Below are positions 2,550 through 12,502 of a stretch of DNA of 56,924 nucleotides, one piece after another (the first letter of the stretch is position 1; every line of letters starts with the position of its first letter). A program made the position numbers and the translations under genes. Under the pieces are notes generated by a model. That model was not told the DNA's origin, did no database searches, and saw only the letters and a list, made by a program, of their open reading frames with translations. The stretch lies in NCBI GenBank assembly GCA_037144275.1, contig JBAWXD010000001.1, positions 1 to 56,924 on the forward strand, in the 5' to 3' direction. The stretch comes from Paludibacter sp. Its GTDB lineage: Bacteria; Bacteroidota; Bacteroidia; Bacteroidales; Paludibacteraceae.

Positions 2550-5500
2550 ATGTCTTTATTCCAAACACAGGTTGAACGTCAATTTTTAGGAGGTATAACC
2601 ACCGATCTGACTCCGATTTATAAAAAATTCGTTGATTATTTTGGCAGTCCTGCCATTCAGGCAAACATTTTAGAATTGATAGAGCAACAATATCAAGGTG
2701 AATTTATTGAGGCTTTATTTGTAAATATATTAGGGTATACCGCTCAACCTCAACCGAATTTCAATCTACTTAGGGAAAAGAAAAACGAAACTGATGCCAA
2801 AAGTGCCGATGCTGCCATCAGTATTAACAATCAAATTACAGCGGTTATTGAACTGAAAGACCACAAAACGCAGGATTTAAAGAAAGTAGAAGTTCAGGCT
2901 TTCGGCTACAAAAACAATCATAAAAACTGCCATTACGTTGTTACTTCCAATTTTGAACGATTGCGGTTTTATATTGATAATGCGGTTGATTTTATTGAGT
3001 TCGATTTATTCAATTTGACATTTGACGAATTTCGCCGGCTGTGGTTGTGCCTTTCATACGAAAGTATGGCAAAGAATCTGCCTCAGGAGATTAAAAACCA
3101 ATCGCTAAGTACCGAAGATGTAATTACCAAGAAACTTTATAAAGATTATTCGGTTTTCAAACGCTTGCTTTTTGATAATATCGTAACATTGAATCCGGAA
3201 AACGACAAACTACTTCTGTTTAAGGAAACACAAAAACTGCTTGACCGATTTCTGTTCCTGTTTTTTGCTGAAGATAAGAGTTTACTTCCTGCTAATTCGA
3301 TTCAGGGAACGGTAGATAAATGGAAAAAATTCAATGCCGACCCGATGAACGACTATCAGAGTTTGTACAGTCGGTTTGTGAAGTATTTCAAGCTGCTGGA
3401 TGTGGGTTATAAAGATGCGAACACCGAGATTTATGCTTATAATGGTGGGTTGTTTGCCAATGATGAATTTCTGAATAAACTCCGTATTGATGATACTATT
3501 CTGGCTGAAAATGTACTTAAACTGGCTCAATACGACTACGATACGGATGTAGATGTAAACATTCTCGGACATATTTTCGAAAACAGCCTCAACGAAATAG
3601 AAGAAGTAACCAATGAAATAACTTCAGGTGTATTCTCCTCCCCTTCGAGTAGGCCGGGAGGGGTCTCGAAAAGGAAACAGGATGGTGTGTTTTATACGCC
3701 ACGTTATATTACTCAATACATTGTTGAAAATACTGTTGGACGGTTGTGCGAAGAAAAGAAAACGGAACTGGGAATTGGTGAAGAGTTATTTGAATACAAG
3801 CGTACCGACAAAAAGAAACAAGCCCTTAAAGTGTTCGATGCCTATCGTGAATGGCTGTTGCAAATCACCATTGTAGACCCGGCATGTGGTAGCGGTGCAT
3901 TTCTGAATACCGCACTCGATTTTTTAATAGCCGAACACAACTGGATTGACAATCAACAGGATAAAATTGCCGGTTCGAAAGACCATTACTCCATGGGATT
4001 ATCGAATATCGAAAATACCATTCTGGAAAACAACCTTTTCGGGGTGGATATCAACGAAGAAAGTGTAGAAATTGCCAAACTGTCGTTGTGGCTGCGCACT
4101 GCCAAACCTCACCGCAAACTCAGTTCGCTGAATAATAATATCAAATGCGGTAATTCGCTGATTGACGACCCAACTGTGGCAGGTGATAAAGCATTCGACT
4201 GGCACAAAGAATTCCCTCAGGTTTTTGGACGTGAACAGAAAGCAGTTGAAGTAACTCCCCTAGAAAAAGACAAAACACCCGATTACCTGAAACTGATTAA
4301 AGAAAAATCGGCAGAAGCTCAACTAAAAGCAGAACACGGAATTGCTCTATCTAAGGAAGCATTGGAAATCACCAAACAATTGGCAGAATATGCCAACAAA
4401 TTAGAGGCTGTTTCAGCACCGAAAACTAAGTATGAAAAACTAAAAGGTGGTTTTGATGTGGTGATTGGGAATCCGCCGTATGTGAATAGTAAGGGAGAAA
4501 CAATAAATGTTGATATAAAAAGACATTTGACAAATAAATATTCAACTGCAGCTTACCAAATAGATTTATACATTCTTTTTTTGGAAAAAGCACTCAGTTT
4601 AGTTAATACGAATGGTTGTATCTCATTTATCGTACCAAATACGTGGTTGAATAATCTAAGATTAGAATCTGTAAGGCAGTTCATGCTTTGCAATTCAAGA
4701 TTCGAAGAGTTTGTAATAATGCCTTCAAATACTTTTGAAGAAGCTAATGTGGATACTATTATTACTACTTATCGAAAAGGTGCTAAAAATGAGAAAGTAA
4801 GATTAATAAGATGCTATGAATCTCAATTTTCACATTTGGGATTTGGCAATCAAACTAATTGGTTTAATAGTCAAGACTCTGCAATAAATATTCACTTGAC
4901 AAAAAATGTGGATGAATTGATTCAAAAAATTGAAAGTGATTCTATTTTACTAGGTGACTTTTCAAATATAGTTCGTGGAGTTGGTGTTTACCATAAAAGG
5001 GTTGGTCATACAAAAGAATTTATTGAATTAGACCCATATCAATCTTCAACAAAAAAAGATGACACTTTTATTCCCTATTTAAGAGGACGTAACTTAGGCA
5101 ACTGGCTTATTGATTGGAATGAAGATAGTTATATAAGTTATGGCGATTGGCTAGCTGAGCCCAAAAACCCCGAATACTTCATTGGTGAAAGAATTCTAGT
5201 TCGAAAAATATTATCGAAAGGATTAGTTGCAACTTATATTGAAAAGAAATTTGTTGTTGATCAACAATTATATACGGTTATAATTAATGCAAATAGTAAT
5301 TATAAAGTTTTAAACATACTCCCAATAATTTGTTCCAAATTAATGTCTTTTTATTTTCGATATAAATATTCAGAGTTTGATGATTTATTTCCACAAATAA
5401 AACTGAGTCATGTTAAGAGCTTACCCATAAAAGAATGGAAGAAGGTTAATCAATATGCATTTATTGAGAAAGCTAACCAAATGCTCACACTAAACAAGGA

Positions 5501-5828
5501 ATTATATGAATCAACTCAAAAATTCCAACGTATGCTTCAGCGTAAGTTTGACTTGGATGAGTTGCCGGGCAAACTTCAAAACTGGTACTTGCTTAGTTAT
5601 AAAGAGTTTATTGCCGAACTTGGTAAGAAAAAAGTAAAACTCACGCTCGCTCAGGAAGCCGAATGGGAAGATTACTTCAACACGGAAAAAGCAAAAGCCA
5701 TCGATAACAAAAAACAAATAGACGATACCGACCGTGAAATAGACCGCATGGTGTATGCGCTGTATGAATTGACTGATGAGGAAGTGAAGATTGTGGAGGG
5801 GGAATCATCAATACCTAACAGGTTTTAG
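2550..5828 (+). CDS. Type IIG restriction-modification enzyme (N-terminal PD-(D/E)XK nuclease, gamma-class N6-adenine MTase, TaqI-like TRD)
   Basis: ADAAI..VIELK nuclease motif; YNGGLF; GVFYTP; motif I IVDPACGSGAF; motif IV GNPPY; C-terminal coiled coil ending EIDRMVYALYELT. Confidence 0.88.
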   Translation: MSLFQTQVERQFLGGITTDLTPIYKKFVDYFGSPAIQANILELIEQQYQGEFIEALFVNILGYTAQPQPNFNLLREKKNETDAKSADAAISINNQITAVIELKDHKTQDLKKVEVQAFGYKNNHKNCHYVVTSNFERLRFYIDNAVDFIEFDLFNLTFDEFRRLWLCLSYESMAKNLPQEIKNQSLSTEDVITKKLYKDYSVFKRLLFDNIVTLNPENDKLLLFKETQKLLDRFLFLFFAEDKSLLPANSIQGTVDKWKKFNADPMNDYQSLYSRFVKYFKLLDVGYKDANTEIYAYNGGLFANDEFLNKLRIDDTILAENVLKLAQYDYDTDVDVNILGHIFENSLNEIEEVTNEITSGVFSSPSSRPGGVSKRKQDGVFYTPRYITQYIVENTVGRLCEEKKTELGIGEELFEYKRTDKKKQALKVFDAYREWLLQITIVDPACGSGAFLNTALDFLIAEHNWIDNQQDKIAGSKDHYSMGLSNIENTILENNLFGVDINEESVEIAKLSLWLRTAKPHRKLSSLNNNIKCGNSLIDDPTVAGDKAFDWHKEFPQVFGREQKAVEVTPLEKDKTPDYLKLIKEKSAEAQLKAEHGIALSKEALEITKQLAEYANKLEAVSAPKTKYEKLKGGFDVVIGNPPYVNSKGETINVDIKRHLTNKYSTAAYQIDLYILFLEKALSLVNTNGCISFIVPNTWLNNLRLESVRQFMLCNSRFEEFVIMPSNTFEEANVDTIITTYRKGAKNEKVRLIRCYESQFSHLGFGNQTNWFNSQDSAINIHLTKNVDELIQKIESDSILLGDFSNIVRGVGVYHKRVGHTKEFIELDPYQSSTKKDDTFIPYLRGRNLGNWLIDWNEDSYISYGDWLAEPKNPEYFIGERILVRKILSKGLVATYIEKKFVVDQQLYTVIINANSNYKVLNILPIICSKLMSFYFRYKYSEFDDLFPQIKLSHVKSLPIKEWKKVNQYAFIEKANQMLTLNKELYESTQKFQRMLQRKFDLDELPGKLQNWYLLSYKEFIAELGKKKVKLTLAQEAEWEDYFNTEKAKAIDNKKQIDDTDREIDRMVYALYELTDEEVKIVEGESSIPNRF
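3635..3665 (-). repeat. GC-rich palindromic repeat element inserted in frame in the R-M gene
   Basis: Reverse complement GACCCCTCCCGGCCTACTCGAAGGGGAGGAG has the C-run/short hairpin/GGGGA layout of the family A repeats. On the + strand it encodes FSSPSSRPGGV. Confidence 0.6.
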
Positions 5829-6248: not shown

Positions 6249-6294
6249 TCTTTTAAAAAAAACGACCTGAAAGAAAAGAGGGGTTTGAAAAGAA

Positions 6295-6326
6295 AAAAAC
6301 TACAAGAACGATTTCCTGTAGTTTTT
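6295..6326 (+). terminator. Intrinsic terminator
   Basis: AAAAACTACAAGAA-cgat-TTCCTGTAGTTTTT hairpin. Confidence 0.6.
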
Positions 6327-6370
6327 CATTTACACAATTTATTGGACAGTGTCTAGCAAAACCGACAGTT

Positions 6371-6405
6371 TGCAAGCCGGTTGCATAAGATTTTATGTAT
6401 CTTTG
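6371..6405 (+). promoter_or_regulatory. Promoter of the DUF6660-czc operon with a TGCAA-N5-TTGCA palindrome (candidate Fur/Zur-family box)
   Basis: TGCAA-gccgg-TTGCA at 6371-6385 and -7 element TATCTTTG at 6398-6405. Confidence 0.55.
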
Positions 6406-6420
6406 TCGTAAAATAGAAAT

Positions 6421-6741
6421 ATGAGATTATTAGCCTACATATTAGCCCTCTATATTTTGGTACTCACGGCCATTCCATGCCTTGATGCACCTGAGTTTTC
6501 GGGAAGTGTAAATATGCAGCTAAGTCAAAACACTACAAATGGCAGTCATGAGCTCCCTGAAGCGGATACTTGCTCGCCTTTCTGTTTTTGTAGCTGTTGT
6601 GTTTCAGCTATCTCGCATGAGGAGCTATTTCAACTGAATTTTATTTCCGATTCATATTCTATTGTTCAATATCCAAGCTATTGTTCGGAATTTTCTTCTT
6701 TCAATTTTGCGTCTATCTGGCAACCGCCAAAGCTTAGCTAA
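6421..6741 (+). CDS. DUF6660-family Cys-rich small protein, candidate leader/arrest peptide
   Basis: Hydrophobic N-terminus ending PC, central CSPFCFCSCC, C-terminal SIWQPPKLS; lies directly upstream of czcA. Confidence 0.8.
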   Translation: MRLLAYILALYILVLTAIPCLDAPEFSGSVNMQLSQNTTNGSHELPEADTCSPFCFCSCCVSAISHEELFQLNFISDSYSIVQYPSYCSEFSSFNFASIWQPPKLS

Positions 6742-6743
6742 AA

Positions 6744-6770
6744 GCCACCCTAACCCTCTAAAGGGGAACT
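6744..6770 (+). repeat. REP-like repeat, family A (CCCCTAACCCCTAAAGGGGAA type)
   Basis: GCCACCCTAACCCTCTAAAGGGGAACT, 2 nt after the DUF6660 stop. Confidence 0.75.
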
Positions 6771-6842
6771 GAGGAAAGATGCTACTCCATTCATCATTCA
6801 ATTTTTTTTAATGATTGAGGTTTAATGCTTTCATCTCTCAAC

Positions 6843-6872
6843 TAATGATTTGTTGTTTTCAATAAATCATTA
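6843..6872 (+). promoter_or_regulatory. Stem-loop in the czcA leader
   Basis: TAATGATTTGTTG-tttt-CAATAAATCATTA: 13-bp stem with one G-U pair, about 32 nt before the czcA ATG. Confidence 0.5.
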
Positions 6873-6904
6873 AAATCCTTGTATTTACCTTTTAAGCTTA
6901 TCGT

Positions 6905-9900
6905 ATGATAGAACGTATCATTCATTTTTCAATAAAAAATAAATTTATTGTCGGACTTTTTGTATTGGCTCTAATCGGTTGGGGAACTTATTCGCTCACC
7001 AATTTACCCATTGATGCTATTCCCGATATTACCAATAATCAGGTGCAGATAATTTCACTTGCTCCTTCATTAGCTGTGCAGGAAGTGGAAAGTTCCATTA
7101 CGGCTCCTGTTGAAGTGGCAGTTGCCAATATCCCCGATATTACTGAACTTCGATCCATATCCCGCTTGGGATTATCAGTTATAACCGTTGTATTCAAAGA
7201 TGGAGTAGATGTTTACTGGGCACGGCAGCAACTCTCCGAACGGATAAAAGAAGCTGAAGATATTATTCCTGAAGGCCTGGCAAAAATTGAACTTGCCCCT
7301 ATTTCCTCCGGGTTGGGAGAAATATTCCAATATCGCTTAGCATTGGAGAAAGGTTACGAACACAGCTATACCCCTATGGAATTGCGGACTTTGCAGGATT
7401 GGACGGTTCGGCGTGGAATGCTTGGCACAGCCGGGGTTGCCGAGATTAATAGTTATGGTGGATTTATAAAACAATATGAAATAGCCCTAAATCCGGAAAG
7501 GCTCAAAAGTCTGAACCTGACGCTTACCGACATATTTGAAGCCCTGGCAAAGAACAATGAAAACACCGGAAGCGCCTATATCGACAAAAAACCAACTGCC
7601 TATTTTATCAGAGGAATTGGTTTGGTGAAAACATTGGAAGATATTGAAAAAATTGTAGTCAAATCTACCGCTTTGGGTATGCCGGTGCTGATACGTGACG
7701 TGGCAACTGTACAATATGGCAGTGCCATACGATATGGAGCGTTGGTGGTAGATAGTACTGAGGCAGTTGGTGGTGTGGTGATGATGCTTAAAGGAGCAAA
7801 CGCTCACGAAGTGATTGGCAGTGTGGAAAAACGCATTGAATCTATACAAAAGTCATTACCTAAAGGCGTAAAAATAGAACCGTTTCTCAATCGTTCCGAT
7901 TTGGTGGGACGGGCAATTACTACCGTTTCGCGCAACCTCCTGGAGGGTGCTTTAATTGTTATCTTTATTCTGGTATTGTTTCTGGGCAATGTAAGAGCCG
8001 GACTGATAGTCGCTTCGGTTATTCCGCTCTCCATGTTGTTTGCCGTTTCTATGATGCAACTTTTTGGAATTTCGGGCAATTTAATGAGTCTGGGAGCTAT
8101 CGACTTCGGGTTGATTGTGGATGGAGCGGTCATCATTGTTGAAAGTGTGGTACACCGAATCACCTTGAGTAAGCATCACCATGTAGGCATAAAGCGGTTA
8201 TCTCAACAACAAATGGACGAAACTGTTTTTGATTCGGCCAAACGAATGATGAGCTCTGCCACATTCGGACAAATCATTATTCTGATAGTGTATGTACCCA
8301 TAATGGCGTTGGTGGGTATCGAGGGTAAAATGTTTCGCCCCATGGCCCAGGTAGTTTCTTTTGCATTGATTGGTGCTACCATTCTTTCGCTGACGTATGT
8401 GCCCATGATTTCAACCCTGTTTTTGAGTAAAAGTACCGAACACAAACCCAATCTATCGGACAAAATGATGGAAGGTTTTCAGCATATTTTTAATCCGATT
8501 ATGCGCTATACAATCCAGCACAAAATGCTTGTTTCGGTTACGGTTATTATGGTTTTTGTTGCCAGCTTATTTGTGTTTAATAGTCTGGGTGGAGAATTTA
8601 TTCCTCAACTGGAAGAAGGTGACTTAGCTGCCGGAGTGATTACCCTGCAGGGCGGTTCGCTGAGTAATACGATTGAGCAAGTAGAAAAGGCGAATAAAAT
8701 ATTGCTCGCCAATTTTCCTGAAATCAAACATGCTGTTTGTAAAATTGGAGCAGGTGAAATCCCTACCGACCCCACACCCATGGAAACAGGTGATTATATT
8801 ATTACCTTGAAACCAAAAAGCGAATGGACTTCGGCACAGACACGCGAAGAACTTATTGCGAAAATGGAAGATGCGTTGATACCCTTGGCAGGAGTAAAAT
8901 TTGAGTTTCAACAACCCATTCAAATGCGTTTCAACGAACTGATGTCCGGTTCGAAACAGGATATTGCCGTAAAAATATATGGCGATAATCTCAACACCCT
9001 GGCCGAAAAAGCGGTTGATGTGGAAAAACTAATACGAACTATAACAGGTGTTGCAGATATTAATGTGGAGAAAGTAACCGGTCTGGCACAGGTGCAAATT
9101 GAATATAATCGTGATCGGTTGGCTCAATATGGTTTGTCTATTCAGGATGTAAACAAAGTGCTGCGGGCTGCTTTTGCCGGTAGTCAGGCAGGGGTTGTAT
9201 TCGACGAAGAGAAACGATTCGGATTGGTGGTGAGGTTAGATAAAGATTACCGCCAAAGTATGGTCGATGTAAAAAATCTTTCTGTTGCTTTGCCTTCGGG
9301 TGGGCAGGTTCCGTTTGACCAATTGGCCAGCATTGAAATTAAATCGGGTCCGGCGCAGGTGTCACGGGAGAACACAAAGCGCAGAATTACTGTTGGCTTT
9401 AATGTACGCAACAGGGATGTTCAAACTGTGATTGACGAAGTTAGCAAACAACTTGATACCAAACTTAAACTTCCAACGGGATATTCCGTATCGTATGGAG
9501 GTCAGTTTCAAAACCTTCAGGCTGCAAAAGCACGTTTGGCTATTGCCGTGCCGGTGGCATTGTTGTTGATATTTGTGCTCTTGTTTTTCACATTCCATTC
9601 GGTAAAACAAACCTTATTAATCTATACGGCAGTGCCTATGTCGCTGATTGGTGGTATTCTGGCTCTGTGGATTCGGGGCATGAATTTCTCCATTTCTGCC
9701 GGAGTTGGCTTTATTGCTTTGTTTGGTATTGCGGTGCTGAATGGTATTGTGCTTATTGCCGAATTCAACCGACTTGAAAAAGACGGTGTTGCCGATATTT
9801 ATGAGCGGGTGACTAAAGGACTGAAAACTCGTTTGCGCCCGGTAATTATGACTGCTGCTGTAGCTTCGCTTGGTTTTCTGCCCATGGCATTATCAAGTTC

Positions 9901-11296
9901 TGCAGGTGCCGAAGTTCAGAAACCGTTGGCAACCGTAGTGATTGGAGGATTGATAACAGCTACTTTGCTGACGCTTTTGGTACTACCGGTGTTCTACATT
10001 TTCTTTTCCAGCGTTTCTTTCAGGTCGCTGTTGAAACGGAAATCTACGAAAACTTTAGCCATCATATTCCTCCTTGTAGTTTGTTCTTCGGGCTTTAACA
10101 CCATAAATGCACAGAAACCCAAGACAATTCAACTCAAACAAGCCATTCAGCTGGCATTGGACAGTAATTTAATGGTACGTTCGTCCGGTTATTCCGTTGA
10201 AGTTCAAAAAAACTTGAAACGGGCTTCGTGGGATATTCCAAAAACAAATATTGAAGGACAATACGGGCAATTTAATTCCTATTCAAAAGATAATAGCTTT
10301 AGCGTTTCACAGTCGTTTGCGTTTCCTACGGTTTATGCTAATCAACATAAACTGGCAAGCGCCAATGTAAAAAGCAGTGAATGGCAATTGAAAAGTTCGC
10401 AACTCGACATAGCCACGCAGGTAAAACAAATTTACTGGCAACTGTCTTACTTGTACTCAAAGCAAAAACTGTTTGTTTATCAGGATAGCTTATATTCCGG
10501 CTTTCAGAAAGCAGCTGAGCTCCGTTTGAAAACAGGTGAAACCAATCGGCTCGAAATGATTTCGGCCCGTTCAGAAAGTCTTGAGATAAAAAATAAGTTG
10601 CAGCAAATTAGTGTCGATCTGATAATTTATAATCAGAAATTGCAAACTATTTTAAACAAAGAAATAGCTCTTTTGCCTGCCGATACGGTTTTGCCGCGAA
10701 TAGACTTTATACCTGCAACTGAAAATTCGGCATTTGCTGCCAACCCATCAATTGGTTATATCAATCAGCAGGTTGAAGTTTCGCAACTGGAGAAAAAACT
10801 GGAAAGTAGTCGTGCTTTACCCGATTTGAGTATAGGCTACTTCAGCCAAACCATGCAGGGAACACAGGAAATAAACGGAGTGCCACGTGTATTTGGCATT
10901 GGCGACCGCTTTAGTGGTATTCAGGCTGGTATAGCAGTTCCGATCTGGTTTGTTCCTTATTCCGCCAAAGCCAAAGCAGCTAAATTGAAGGAGAAGATAG
11001 CTCAAACCAATGCGGAAAGTTATTCCAAATCTATTTCGGGCAGCTATCGTTCCTTATTGCTTGAGCTCAGCAAAAACAGCAACAGTGTGGATTATTACGA
11101 AAGACAAGCTATTCCCGAAGCTGATTTAATTATCAGTCAGGCCACGAAAAGTTATAAAGCCGGTGCCATGGATTATTCGGATTATATGTTGAGTCTGAAC
11201 CGGGCGTTGAGCATCAAACAAAACTACCTCGATGCGCTGAATAGCTACAATCAAACCATTATTTCCATAGACTTTATTACAGGGAAAATCTTTTAA
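6905..11296 (+). CDS. czcA: CusA/CzcA heavy-metal RND permease fused to a C-terminal TolC/CzcC-like outer-membrane factor
   Basis: DAIPDITNNQVQI, MSLGAIDFGLIVDGAVIIVE, RLRPVIMTAAVASLGFLPMA and EVQKPLATVVIGG motifs. About 420 extra C-terminal aa with an OEP-like helical pattern follow a signal-like segment. Confidence 0.92.
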   Translation: MIERIIHFSIKNKFIVGLFVLALIGWGTYSLTNLPIDAIPDITNNQVQIISLAPSLAVQEVESSITAPVEVAVANIPDITELRSISRLGLSVITVVFKDGVDVYWARQQLSERIKEAEDIIPEGLAKIELAPISSGLGEIFQYRLALEKGYEHSYTPMELRTLQDWTVRRGMLGTAGVAEINSYGGFIKQYEIALNPERLKSLNLTLTDIFEALAKNNENTGSAYIDKKPTAYFIRGIGLVKTLEDIEKIVVKSTALGMPVLIRDVATVQYGSAIRYGALVVDSTEAVGGVVMMLKGANAHEVIGSVEKRIESIQKSLPKGVKIEPFLNRSDLVGRAITTVSRNLLEGALIVIFILVLFLGNVRAGLIVASVIPLSMLFAVSMMQLFGISGNLMSLGAIDFGLIVDGAVIIVESVVHRITLSKHHHVGIKRLSQQQMDETVFDSAKRMMSSATFGQIIILIVYVPIMALVGIEGKMFRPMAQVVSFALIGATILSLTYVPMISTLFLSKSTEHKPNLSDKMMEGFQHIFNPIMRYTIQHKMLVSVTVIMVFVASLFVFNSLGGEFIPQLEEGDLAAGVITLQGGSLSNTIEQVEKANKILLANFPEIKHAVCKIGAGEIPTDPTPMETGDYIITLKPKSEWTSAQTREELIAKMEDALIPLAGVKFEFQQPIQMRFNELMSGSKQDIAVKIYGDNLNTLAEKAVDVEKLIRTITGVADINVEKVTGLAQVQIEYNRDRLAQYGLSIQDVNKVLRAAFAGSQAGVVFDEEKRFGLVVRLDKDYRQSMVDVKNLSVALPSGGQVPFDQLASIEIKSGPAQVSRENTKRRITVGFNVRNRDVQTVIDEVSKQLDTKLKLPTGYSVSYGGQFQNLQAAKARLAIAVPVALLLIFVLLFFTFHSVKQTLLIYTAVPMSLIGGILALWIRGMNFSISAGVGFIALFGIAVLNGIVLIAEFNRLEKDGVADIYERVTKGLKTRLRPVIMTAAVASLGFLPMALSSSAGAEVQKPLATVVIGGLITATLLTLLVLPVFYIFFSSVSFRSLLKRKSTKTLAIIFLLVVCSSGFNTINAQKPKTIQLKQAIQLALDSNLMVRSSGYSVEVQKNLKRASWDIPKTNIEGQYGQFNSYSKDNSFSVSQSFAFPTVYANQHKLASANVKSSEWQLKSSQLDIATQVKQIYWQLSYLYSKQKLFVYQDSLYSGFQKAAELRLKTGETNRLEMISARSESLEIKNKLQQISVDLIIYNQKLQTILNKEIALLPADTVLPRIDFIPATENSAFAANPSIGYINQQVEVSQLEKKLESSRALPDLSIGYFSQTMQGTQEINGVPRVFGIGDRFSGIQAGIAVPIWFVPYSAKAKAAKLKEKIAQTNAESYSKSISGSYRSLLLELSKNSNSVDYYERQAIPEADLIISQATKSYKAGAMDYSDYMLSLNRALSIKQNYLDALNSYNQTIISIDFITGKIF

Positions 11297-11320: not shown

Positions 11321-12502
11321 ATGACAAGCTATAATTTCAAATCATTTATTTTATTTTCAATCCTGCTGGTTGCTTTTGCATCGTGTGGGAAACAGAAGAA
11401 ATCAGAAACTGCTATCAAGGAAGAAGTGCTTCCGGATAATATTGTAGAAATGAGGAGCGATCAGGTAAAACTTGCTGACATAAAAACGGGCCTGATTGAA
11501 TTGCGTTCGCTAAGCGGAACCCTGAAAGTAAGCGGTGTAGTTGCCGCAGCCCCTCAAAATATGGCTATGGTAAGTATGCCATTGGGCGGTTTTGTAAAAA
11601 GCACATCGCTTATGCCAGGCAATTCGGTTATTAAAGGTCAATCACTGGCCGTAATCGAAAACGCCGAATTTATTGATATTCAGCAAAACTACCTTGAAGC
11701 TAAAAGTAAACTTGAATATGCTGAGGCAGATTATAACCGTCAAAACGAACTGTACAAAAATGATGTTTCGTCAAAAAAGAATATGCAGCTAGTTACGTCG
11801 GAGTACAAGAGTCTGAAAGTGCAGGTGAAATCATTGGAACAAAAATTGTCGATTATAGGTATTACTCCCAATAAACTGAATGAAAATACTATCAGTAAAT
11901 CCATTACGCTGACTTCCCCCATTTCGGGATATGTAAAAACAGTCAATGTAAGTATCGGGAAGTCGGTTTCGGCGACCGATGTGTTATTCGAGATAGTAAA
12001 TACCAGCAAACTCTTCCTTCAACTGACTCTTTTTGAAAAAGATGCCGATAAGGTTTCAAGCGGGCAGAATATACGTTTCTTTATCAACAATGAAACCGAA
12101 CAACATATGGCATTGATTTACCAAACCGCCAAATCCGTTGATTCCGATAATACCTACAAGGTATATGCAAGTGTTCAGGGGACTTGTAAGAATGTTTTAC
12201 CCGGCATGTATGTCAATGCGATTATTGATGCTACAACCCAAAAAGTAAGGGCAGTACCCTCCGAATCCATAGTTAGTTTCGAAGACAAAGACTATATTTT
12301 TATTTTTGAACGGAACAAACAGGAAAGTGGCAAACATTTTACAGAATACCAATTGATACAGGTAAAAAAAGGTGTGACCGACGAAGGATATACTGAAATT
12401 ACATTACCCGACAACTTCAATGTCAAAGCAGCAAAAGTGGTAGTAAAAGGTGCGTATGATTTGCTTTCGGCCAAGAAAAATGCAGGGGAAATGGCTTGCT
12501 GA
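11321..12502 (+). CDS. czcB: RND efflux periplasmic adaptor (CzcB-like lipoprotein)
   Basis: Lipobox FASC; biotin-lipoyl/alpha-hairpin MFP pattern (SPISGYV..G..V); follows czcA. Confidence 0.85.
   Translation: MTSYNFKSFILFSILLVAFASCGKQKKSETAIKEEVLPDNIVEMRSDQVKLADIKTGLIELRSLSGTLKVSGVVAAAPQNMAMVSMPLGGFVKSTSLMPGNSVIKGQSLAVIENAEFIDIQQNYLEAKSKLEYAEADYNRQNELYKNDVSSKKNMQLVTSEYKSLKVQVKSLEQKLSIIGITPNKLNENTISKSITLTSPISGYVKTVNVSIGKSVSATDVLFEIVNTSKLFLQLTLFEKDADKVSSGQNIRFFINNETEQHMALIYQTAKSVDSDNTYKVYASVQGTCKNVLPGMYVNAIIDATTQKVRAVPSESIVSFEDKDYIFIFERNKQESGKHFTEYQLIQVKKGVTDEGYTEITLPDNFNVKAAKVVVKGAYDLLSAKKNAGEMAC

Follow-up and report, generated by a model that had tools for sequence, protein, structure and literature searches.

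Regulation of a gene by the nascent chain of a small open reading frame (ORF) ahead of it has been described for CutF of Rhodobacter capsulatus (cutFOG; PMC9973294, bioRxiv 2025.02.05.636593) and for CruR of Bordetella pertussis, a DUF2946 protein (PF11162; PMC9426467) whose stalling was shown in vitro (PMC12992588). A first-pass annotation of the locus studied here had derived both from one DUF2946 template consisting of a signal sequence, a CxxC and a RAPP-type proline motif, but this common template was overstated: the signal peptide of CruR is described as dispensable (PMC9426467) and CutF as ending in PPP rather than RAPP (bioRxiv 2025.02.05.636593). The Arg of RAPP motifs is reported to be required (PMC10951233), and in Escherichia coli motifs of PP plus a basic residue paused ribosomes only after an acidic residue, with PQPPK used as a weak control (PMC4140641). 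For other peptides, arrest that depends on the host has been documented (PMC10987492). The CutF-like list D of Öztürk 2023 (PMC9973294) comprises 5,334 proteins, 19% of them from Bacteroidota, and its neighbour classes, taken over the list as a whole, include ACR_tran (CusA/CzcA). Bacteroidota are reported to have no RAPP/RGPP leaders of Cu-related genes (PMC12992588).

Here we analyzed a window of 56,924 nucleotides of Paludibacter sp. DNA, in which a small ORF of the DUF6660 family precedes a czcA pump gene. Our reading of this locus, to which we assign a probability of about 0.62, is that the ORF is a leader acting in cis, in which a ribosome stalled at a C-terminal QPP would open an RNA stem and turn czcA on, probably in response to a divalent metal at a Cys cluster of the leader peptide.

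The DUF6660 leader and its relatives

The leader ORF lies at 6421-6741 on the + strand, starts with ATG and encodes 106 aa. Every element that the first-pass annotation had read in it was present, namely a hydrophobic N-terminus, the cluster CSPFCFCSCC, the ending IWQPPK and a spacer of 163 nt between its stop codon and the czcA ATG at 6905, and its assignment to DUF6660 was borne out by Pfam (PF20365, 33.6 bits against a cut-off of 27). The Pfam profile matched 48/48 members of our alignment A1, a search with the family profile gave 3,527 clusters at 50% identity, and 105 database homologs of the leader were found. ESM Atlas returned DUF6660 plus one unnamed 'secreted protein' cluster and nothing else.

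Residues 1-19 (6421-6480) resemble an export signal in helix prediction and hydropathy and end at a conserved Pro19-Cys20. The best 12-residue hydropathy window averaged 2.7 among 167 relatives, with a minimum of 1.9, and C20 was invariant in A1 (48/48). AlphaFold2 modeled a single helix at residues 2-17 with low confidence (pTM 0.28) and predicted no fold beyond it, a weak negative as the alignment held 48 sequences. The Cys cluster C51-S-P-F-C55-x-C57-x-C59-C60 (6571-6600) is a putative metal site. Its five Cys were invariant in A1, 85% of relatives have an Asp two residues ahead of it, and upstream is a stretch rich in His. The putative arrest motif IWQPPK (6715-6732; QPP codons 6721-6729) is part of the C-terminus IWQPPKLS, which places PP three residues from the stop.

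Conservation was assessed in 172 nonredundant relatives, reduced from 215 and pooled from the 105 database homologs and the proteins of 110 loci, 80 of which were the best 80 of 543 and hence biased towards the query. All 172 had PP, preceded by Q in 94% and W in 92%; WQPP was found in 150/172 and RAPP in none. PP stood 2-4 residues ahead of the stop in 165/172, and its Pro codons were of all four kinds, indicating that the peptide is under selection. The spacing between the first Cys of the cluster and the first Pro, which the first-pass annotation had proposed as a check, proved to be conserved at 49-55 residues in 171/172 relatives, the sole exception being a script artefact that picked an earlier PP; most positions within this spacer were <35% conserved. 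Among the best 150 profile matches, 138 representatives were new, and 136 of these had the same spacing and 128 had WQPP. Homolog searches favour equal lengths, a caveat on this constancy. In addition, the Cys20-to-cluster distance was equally constant (sd 1.5, vs 1.4 for Cys to PP), so constancy of length is not peculiar to the tunnel span. One truncated DUF6660-like ORF (L151, G198:C4) ends soon after the Cys cluster, has neither PP nor czcA and is likely a pseudogene.

When 401 genomes of the phylum were sampled, PF20365 was present in 68, with 76 matches, all of which were retrieved and 75 of which end in PP. Downstream stood czcA within 700 nt in 58 cases, a TonB-dependent receptor in 13 (12 confirmed by scan and one by length and N-terminus alone), a TolC-like gene in two, and an HMA protein in one; one match was a tandem copy and one was truncated. 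No substrate family of the TonB receptors was matched over a cut-off. In the reverse direction, plasmid loci were picked by the pump alone, taking the top match from each of ten genera, and a leader stood upstream in 9/10, mostly unannotated; the tenth locus had a 133-aa ORF ending in RGPPSVFS. A tblastn search of plasmids with the leader gave no matches and was insensitive, as plasmids do carry DUF6660.

Several variations were observed within this sample. Six of the 13 TonB-receptor leaders (L125, L127, L136, L145, L150, L154), and 0/58 czcA leaders, had the variant Cys pattern CSPFxxCxxC, often with an extra Cys upstream, which suggests tuning to a ligand. The spacers of L125 and L127 were 37-38 nt long, with a simple hairpin covering the start region. 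An additional ORF of 46-62 aa, whose N-terminus is basic and which has a single hydrophobic segment, lay between leader and czcA in L013, L019, L029, L118, L126, L148 and L155, and the stem energies to its start were mixed (-3 to -11 kcal/mol). His-rich leader ORFs ending in RAPP/RGPP also occurred (L156-L162; L172:453-854), ahead of lipoprotein-like genes, one czcA and a putative GTPase that we take to be COG0523-like.

Promoter, operator and pump operon

The -7 element TAnnTTTG, the consensus of the Bacteroidota housekeeping promoter (PMC6847099), is found at 6398-6405 on the + strand; a sigma-70 promoter scan is not applicable to this phylum. Such a box lies <=60 nt before the leader in 54/79 loci and within the spacer in 3/79. 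Because the box precedes the leader and is seldom in the spacer, expression of the pump likely depends on the transcript of the leader. In 27/79 loci (e.g. L002, L005, L007) the box ends 4-6 nt ahead of the leader start codon, a spacing seen in 10/1,839 genome ORFs, and this implies that the mRNA of these loci is leaderless. The mRNA leader of the ORF at 6421 is about 10 nt. GTG or TTG served as the start codon in 22/79 leaders.

A palindromic, operator-like site, TGCAA-N5-TTGCA (6371-6385, +), lies 12 nt ahead of the -7 box. It was found upstream of the leader in 20/79 loci vs 18/3491 background windows, at 12-13 nt from the box in 12 of the 20, and occurred in 7/7 loci with a Fur-family gene nearby vs 4/48 without one. 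A distinct Fur-family gene stands upstream of the leader in L032, L034, L037, L044, L066, L068, L073 and L082. The subfamily of these 8 relatives was not found in the Paludibacter genome with one query (95.9% complete, 431 contigs), which contains two other Fur genes. The site is likely bound by a Fur-family regulator, and the pattern points to an uncharacterised Fur subfamily together with its candidate operator. Bound at this operator, such a protein would give some of the loci, the Paludibacter window among them, a transcriptional layer of control as well.

The czcA gene (6905-11296, +) encodes an RND pump of the CusA/CzcA family in fusion with a TolC-like outer-membrane factor (ACR_tran and OEP matches; TIGR00914 over its cut-off) and is followed by a CzcB/CusB-type periplasmic adaptor (11321-12502, +; profile matches). 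The best PDB match of the pump was ZneA, which scored above CusA. At the three aligned Met positions of CusA, which we take to be its Cu site, the pump has G, T and E, and thus lacks the three-Met site of the CusA-type Cu(I)/Ag(I) pump. Because it is closer to ZneA than to CusA and has G/T/E in place of the three Met, it is likely an exporter of divalent cations. The fusion is a single ORF of 1463 aa; its seam, near residues 1040-1070, carries a signal-peptide-like segment with basic residues, a hydrophobic core and an NAQ end, which suggests cleavage at the seam into two proteins. On the other side of the leader promoter, a 15-bp hairpin between A and T runs (6294-6327) follows a DUF4359 gene and is likely a bidirectional terminator closing that gene. 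A 1092-aa fused restriction-modification-like protein is encoded at 2550-5828, with the adenine methyltransferase motifs DPACGSG and GNPPY read from the translation alone.

Pairing between the leader end and the next start

The mRNA just after the Pro-Pro codons is predicted to fold onto the czcA start region. The 5′ arm (6730-6736, +), directly after the PP codons, pairs with 6893-6899 at a probability of 0.8-0.9; this 3′ arm (+) covers positions -12 to -6 relative to the czcA start, within an initiation region that has no Shine-Dalgarno (SD) sequence. A second, locus-specific arm (6708-6717, +) pairs with czcA codons 1-4 (6907-6917) at probabilities of mostly 0.9-1.0, and its family-wide signal was weak, about 0.2. 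The region 6700-6930 folded better than 200/200 shuffles (z -3.9).

To compare loci, the 27 nt around the leader stop were paired with the 35 nt before the czcA start of the same locus or of other loci. A czcA start was identifiable in 105 of 111 loci; one locus was dropped because it lacked the motif, three because another gene stood downstream and two because the contig ended, and 81 remained after dereplication. Cognate pairing averaged -9.5 kcal/mol vs -5.4 for non-cognate pairing, a difference reached by 0/10,000 permutations, although the loci are kin, so that p-values overstate. The cognate excess in ordinary same-strand gene pairs of the Paludibacter genome was 1.0-1.6 kcal/mol (three draws of 81 from 590 pairs). 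In sliding windows, the signal was restricted to two stretches, +7..+21 counted from the first Pro codon and -25..-8 upstream of the ATG. Cognate pairing was also stronger in the 13 TonB-receptor loci (-9.7 vs -4.6 kcal/mol) and in nine held-out plasmid loci (-13.3 vs -5.4 kcal/mol), and the predicted partner of the stem appears to be whichever gene stands next, czcA or TonB receptor. The cognate pairing ranked first in just 14/81 loci and was weak in long spacers. In Flavobacterium, adenines at -3, -6, -12 and -13 together with low structure favour initiation (PMC6847099), and the window of the 3′ arm is the region in which that source places the adenine/low-structure effect.

We then modeled the ribosome as a ribosome-sized stretch kept unpaired, using loci with spacers <=170 nt and 110 controls drawn from 457 gene pairs. 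With the footprint at PP, the cost of opening the start region fell by a median of 3.35 kcal/mol, vs 0.02 in controls, and relief exceeded 2 kcal/mol in 46/70 loci vs 8/110 controls. In the Paludibacter window, the opening cost of -16..+13 dropped from 10.5 to 6.4 kcal/mol, with the minimum reached for a P site on codons 101-103, and climbed again to 6.9-9.2 once the P site passed P103. In this model, the stem-loop shields the downstream initiation site and can be reached by a ribosome at the proline motif.

The stem is registered to the prolines and not to the stop codon, as judged from predicted arm positions. Measured from PP, the arm centre lay at about +16 nt irrespective of a tail length of 2, 3 or 4 residues (n = 22, 55 and 8). 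When regressed on stop position, where a slope of 1 would mean stop-linked, three window choices, one of them stop-anchored, gave -0.10±0.21, -0.03±0.20 and -0.42±0.27 (85-87 of 108 loci, those with a clear stem). Such registration is expected if a working ribosome sits at the prolines. RNAalifold found no consensus structure in 13 Bacteroidales spacers; on the same alignment the named helix was 85.8% paired, with 4/11 pairs compensatory, and was matched by 6/500 shuffles for paired fraction and 55/500 for pair count, so that covariation was modest.

The first-pass annotation had pointed to two other spacer elements. One, a repeat hairpin with a C-rich arm followed by AAAGGGG (6747-6770, +), turned out to be a dispersed REP-like repeat with 10 copies at <=4 mismatches in the genome, including copies on C1 near 51199 and 41876. 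It was not seen in the relatives' spacers inspected and appears to be an incidental insertion. The other, a 13-bp AU-rich stem (6843-6855/6860-6872, +), does exist, with pair probabilities of 0.9-1.0, but is a local hairpin without a U-tract rather than a conserved element, and likewise appears incidental. By eye, relatives' spacers contain varied internal hairpins, and we rejected the two elements as a conserved RNA structure. Attenuation by an intrinsic terminator was also rejected. Terminator calling gave nothing on the + strand of the spacer, and the excess of terminator-like hairpins over shuffles (14 vs 2.6) was gone against real gene pairs (14/72 loci vs 85/513).

Mechanism, alternatives and known systems

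The leader anatomy, the fixed spacing, the position between promoter and metal gene, and a stem of conserved position and varying sequence are all read from sequence, and together they point to a translational switch. That ribosomes would pause at QPP is very probable in our judgment. QPPK alone should be a poor staller, because the PP-basic pauses of E. coli need a preceding acidic residue, and the Arg required in RAPP is missing from the leader motif; QPP is only mildly depleted in the Paludibacter proteome (16 found and 26.7 expected, ranking sixth of 20). Either the conserved Ile-Trp or host-specific ribosomes would be required for arrest. That the pause would melt the stem and turn czcA translation on is probable, and we place good confidence in a cis-acting, pause-operated translational switch as such. 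The annotation's wider idea, a cis-acting Bacteroidota counterpart of CutF and CruR with a WQPP motif, is supported in part by the fixed spacing, the near-obligate first-gene position and the predicted PP-registered stem over the next start; the RNA elements that it had picked were the wrong ones.

The input of the switch is a separate matter. The tunnel holds about 30 residues, and a further 17 or so span the membrane (PMC9973294, Discussion). If P102 occupies the P site while the chain is engaged in SecY, C51-C60, which lie 42-51 residues from the first Pro, would therefore be at the periplasmic exit, by analogy with the 45-residue geometry of CutF. A Zn/Cd/Co-type metal bound to the Cys cluster of the half-exported chain would, on balance, prolong the stall, and we favour metal as the input with somewhat less assurance than the switch itself. 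We infer metal control and regard the leader as CutF-like and cis-acting. The polarity of metal cannot be uniform, since the same predicted stall-ON stem precedes TonB receptors, which are presumed importers. A wider picture, which we offer tentatively and would sooner doubt than accept, is that DUF6660 proteins are phylum-wide metal-sensing arrest peptides: an Arg-free IWQPP tuned to Bacteroidota ribosomes would sense periplasmic Zn/Cd/Co rather than copper and gate an SD-less start through the PP-registered stem, often on leaderless mRNA, with an exporter type in which metal prolongs the stall and a TonB-receptor type, with altered Cys, in which metal releases it.

The same cis-acting stall-and-stem device might instead respond to Sec pulling force or periplasmic disulfides, or be a constitutive pause, while metal control is transcriptional through the Fur-family operator. 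Metal binding at the Cys cluster is putative, and the Fur-linked operator occurs in 20/79 loci; however, the operator is absent from the other 59/79, which retain the Cys cluster all the same. Disulfides might form among the six conserved Cys, a proposal made for CutF (bioRxiv 2025.02.05.636593), and Sec-monitoring arrest peptides of Bacteroidota end in NSP- or NAP-stop (PMC10987492). Against this, what lies downstream encodes a metal pump, a TonB receptor or an HMA protein, with sec genes in 0/76, and the altered Cys pattern confined to TonB-receptor leaders (6/13 vs 0/58) suggests ligand tuning. We consider a non-metal input unlikely. Quite improbable, in our view, is ordinary translational coupling, in which the terminating ribosome unwinds the stem with no programmed arrest and the prolines serve otherwise. 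The 5′ arm spans the stop codon, so a terminating ribosome would cover it as well, and E. coli ribosomes pause only weakly at QPPK (PMC4140641). Yet the arm position follows PP rather than the stop, the opening cost in the Paludibacter window rises once the P site has passed P103, and coupling leaves unexplained why an invariant WQPP keeps a set distance to the Cys cluster.

Slightly more improbable still is a CruR-type arrangement, in which a stalled ribosome would keep Rho from terminating transcription and the metal would be sensed in the cytoplasm, with no need for export. The 163-nt spacer and the Cys-to-Pro distance do resemble CruR, and the spacer-coding region has a C>G skew of +0.22 (positive in 77/81 loci) vs -0.10 at genome ORF ends; but its value at four-fold sites matches that of czcA (0.22 vs 0.17), so amino acids probably account for most of it. 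In addition, the predicted stem targets the initiation region specifically, and terminator-like hairpins were not enriched over real gene pairs. Rho polarity could act downstream of failed czcA initiation. Least probable of all is a role in trans for the secreted product, as a periplasmic metal chaperone or metallothionein-like peptide that works with the pump. Its export-like signal, six Cys and several His, and its constant company of metal-transport genes would suit such a role, although no fold was predicted from the 48-sequence alignment. A chaperone would not account for a WQPP so close to the stop, for the spacer's fixed length, for a stem registered to PP or for a first-gene position ahead of unrelated partners.

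The class of CutF-like leaders is already known, and the idea for DUF6660 is partly anticipated by PMC9973294. Within the full-text literature searched, from which subscription journals are largely absent, no paper contained 'DUF6660', its WQPP motif or the PP-registered stem, and none joined leader peptide, czcA, ribosome stalling and Bacteroidetes. The leader has the features by which Öztürk 2023 (PMC9973294) filtered: fewer than 150 aa, PP among the final 15 residues, a same-strand neighbour within 1,000 nt and, by hydropathy and the AlphaFold2 helix, a signal-like N-terminus, the filter there being a SignalP-predicted Sec signal. DUF6660 is probably within that CutF-like list, which has 29 clusters; the available text of the paper gives no DUF6660 name, motif or RNA stem and describes no test of a Bacteroidota member.

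Among other systems, CzcI of Cupriavidus metallidurans (PMC9973294, Discussion) is likewise a small gene heading a czc RND operon, and a metal-sensing regulator has been suggested; as described there it has no C-terminal proline motif, unlike the leader. SecM, MifM, VemP, Apd and the Bacteroidota NSP-stop and NAP-stop peptides share with the leader an export signal, a C-terminal proline-containing motif and a stem over the next start (PMC10987492, PMC10951233). They monitor Sec/YidC and have no metal cluster, and the leader lacks their RAP/P geometry: RAPP-type peptides (ApdA/ApdP/SecM) have Arg two before the P-site Pro, the position held by Trp in 92% of DUF6660 relatives (PMC10951233).

CruR (PMC9426467) also has PP three residues before the stop, 51 residues from C90 to P141 (C51 to P102 in the leader, likewise 51), a spacer of about 162 nt (163 here) and family members ahead of TonB receptors. 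It differs in being signal-independent and Rho-dependent, with a RAPP motif and a stall relieved by metal, whereas the leader has no Arg and a predicted translation-initiation stem. The DUF2946 profile (PF11162) matched 0/48 A1 members at E up to 10, and across the 401 sampled genomes it gave weak matches in no more than 7. An hhalign comparison of the leader family with ORFs of PF11162 loci gave a probability of 4.5% on a rough alignment of 7 ORFs (six ending in RAPP/RGPP plus one duplicate-genus relative).

The likeness to CutF (PMC9973294, bioRxiv 2025.02.05.636593) extends to a small first gene, a Sec-type signal, a stem-loop over the next gene's initiation site, which is predicted here, and probably a stall that means ON for a detoxifying gene. 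CutF has CxxxC about 45 residues from its C-terminal proline motif, and 44 residues lie between C55 and W100 of the leader. In contrast, CutF has EGPPP where the leader has IWQPP and a five-Cys cluster, its stem hides an SD sequence whereas that of the leader hides an SD-less, A-rich initiation region, and its target is a copper oxidase rather than a likely divalent-cation RND pump or a TonB receptor. If our reading is true, a large unannotated family gains a function as the apparent standard regulator of the Bacteroidota Czc-type pump, filling the gap that PMC12992588 states for RAPP/RGPP leaders in Bacteroidota. There would be an arrest motif other than RAPP or PPP, nascent-chain metal sensing would reach past copper, and a stall-operated switch would work without an SD sequence. 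The exporter- and receptor-linked versions would also make it testable why metal prolongs the stalling of CutF and relieves that of CruR.
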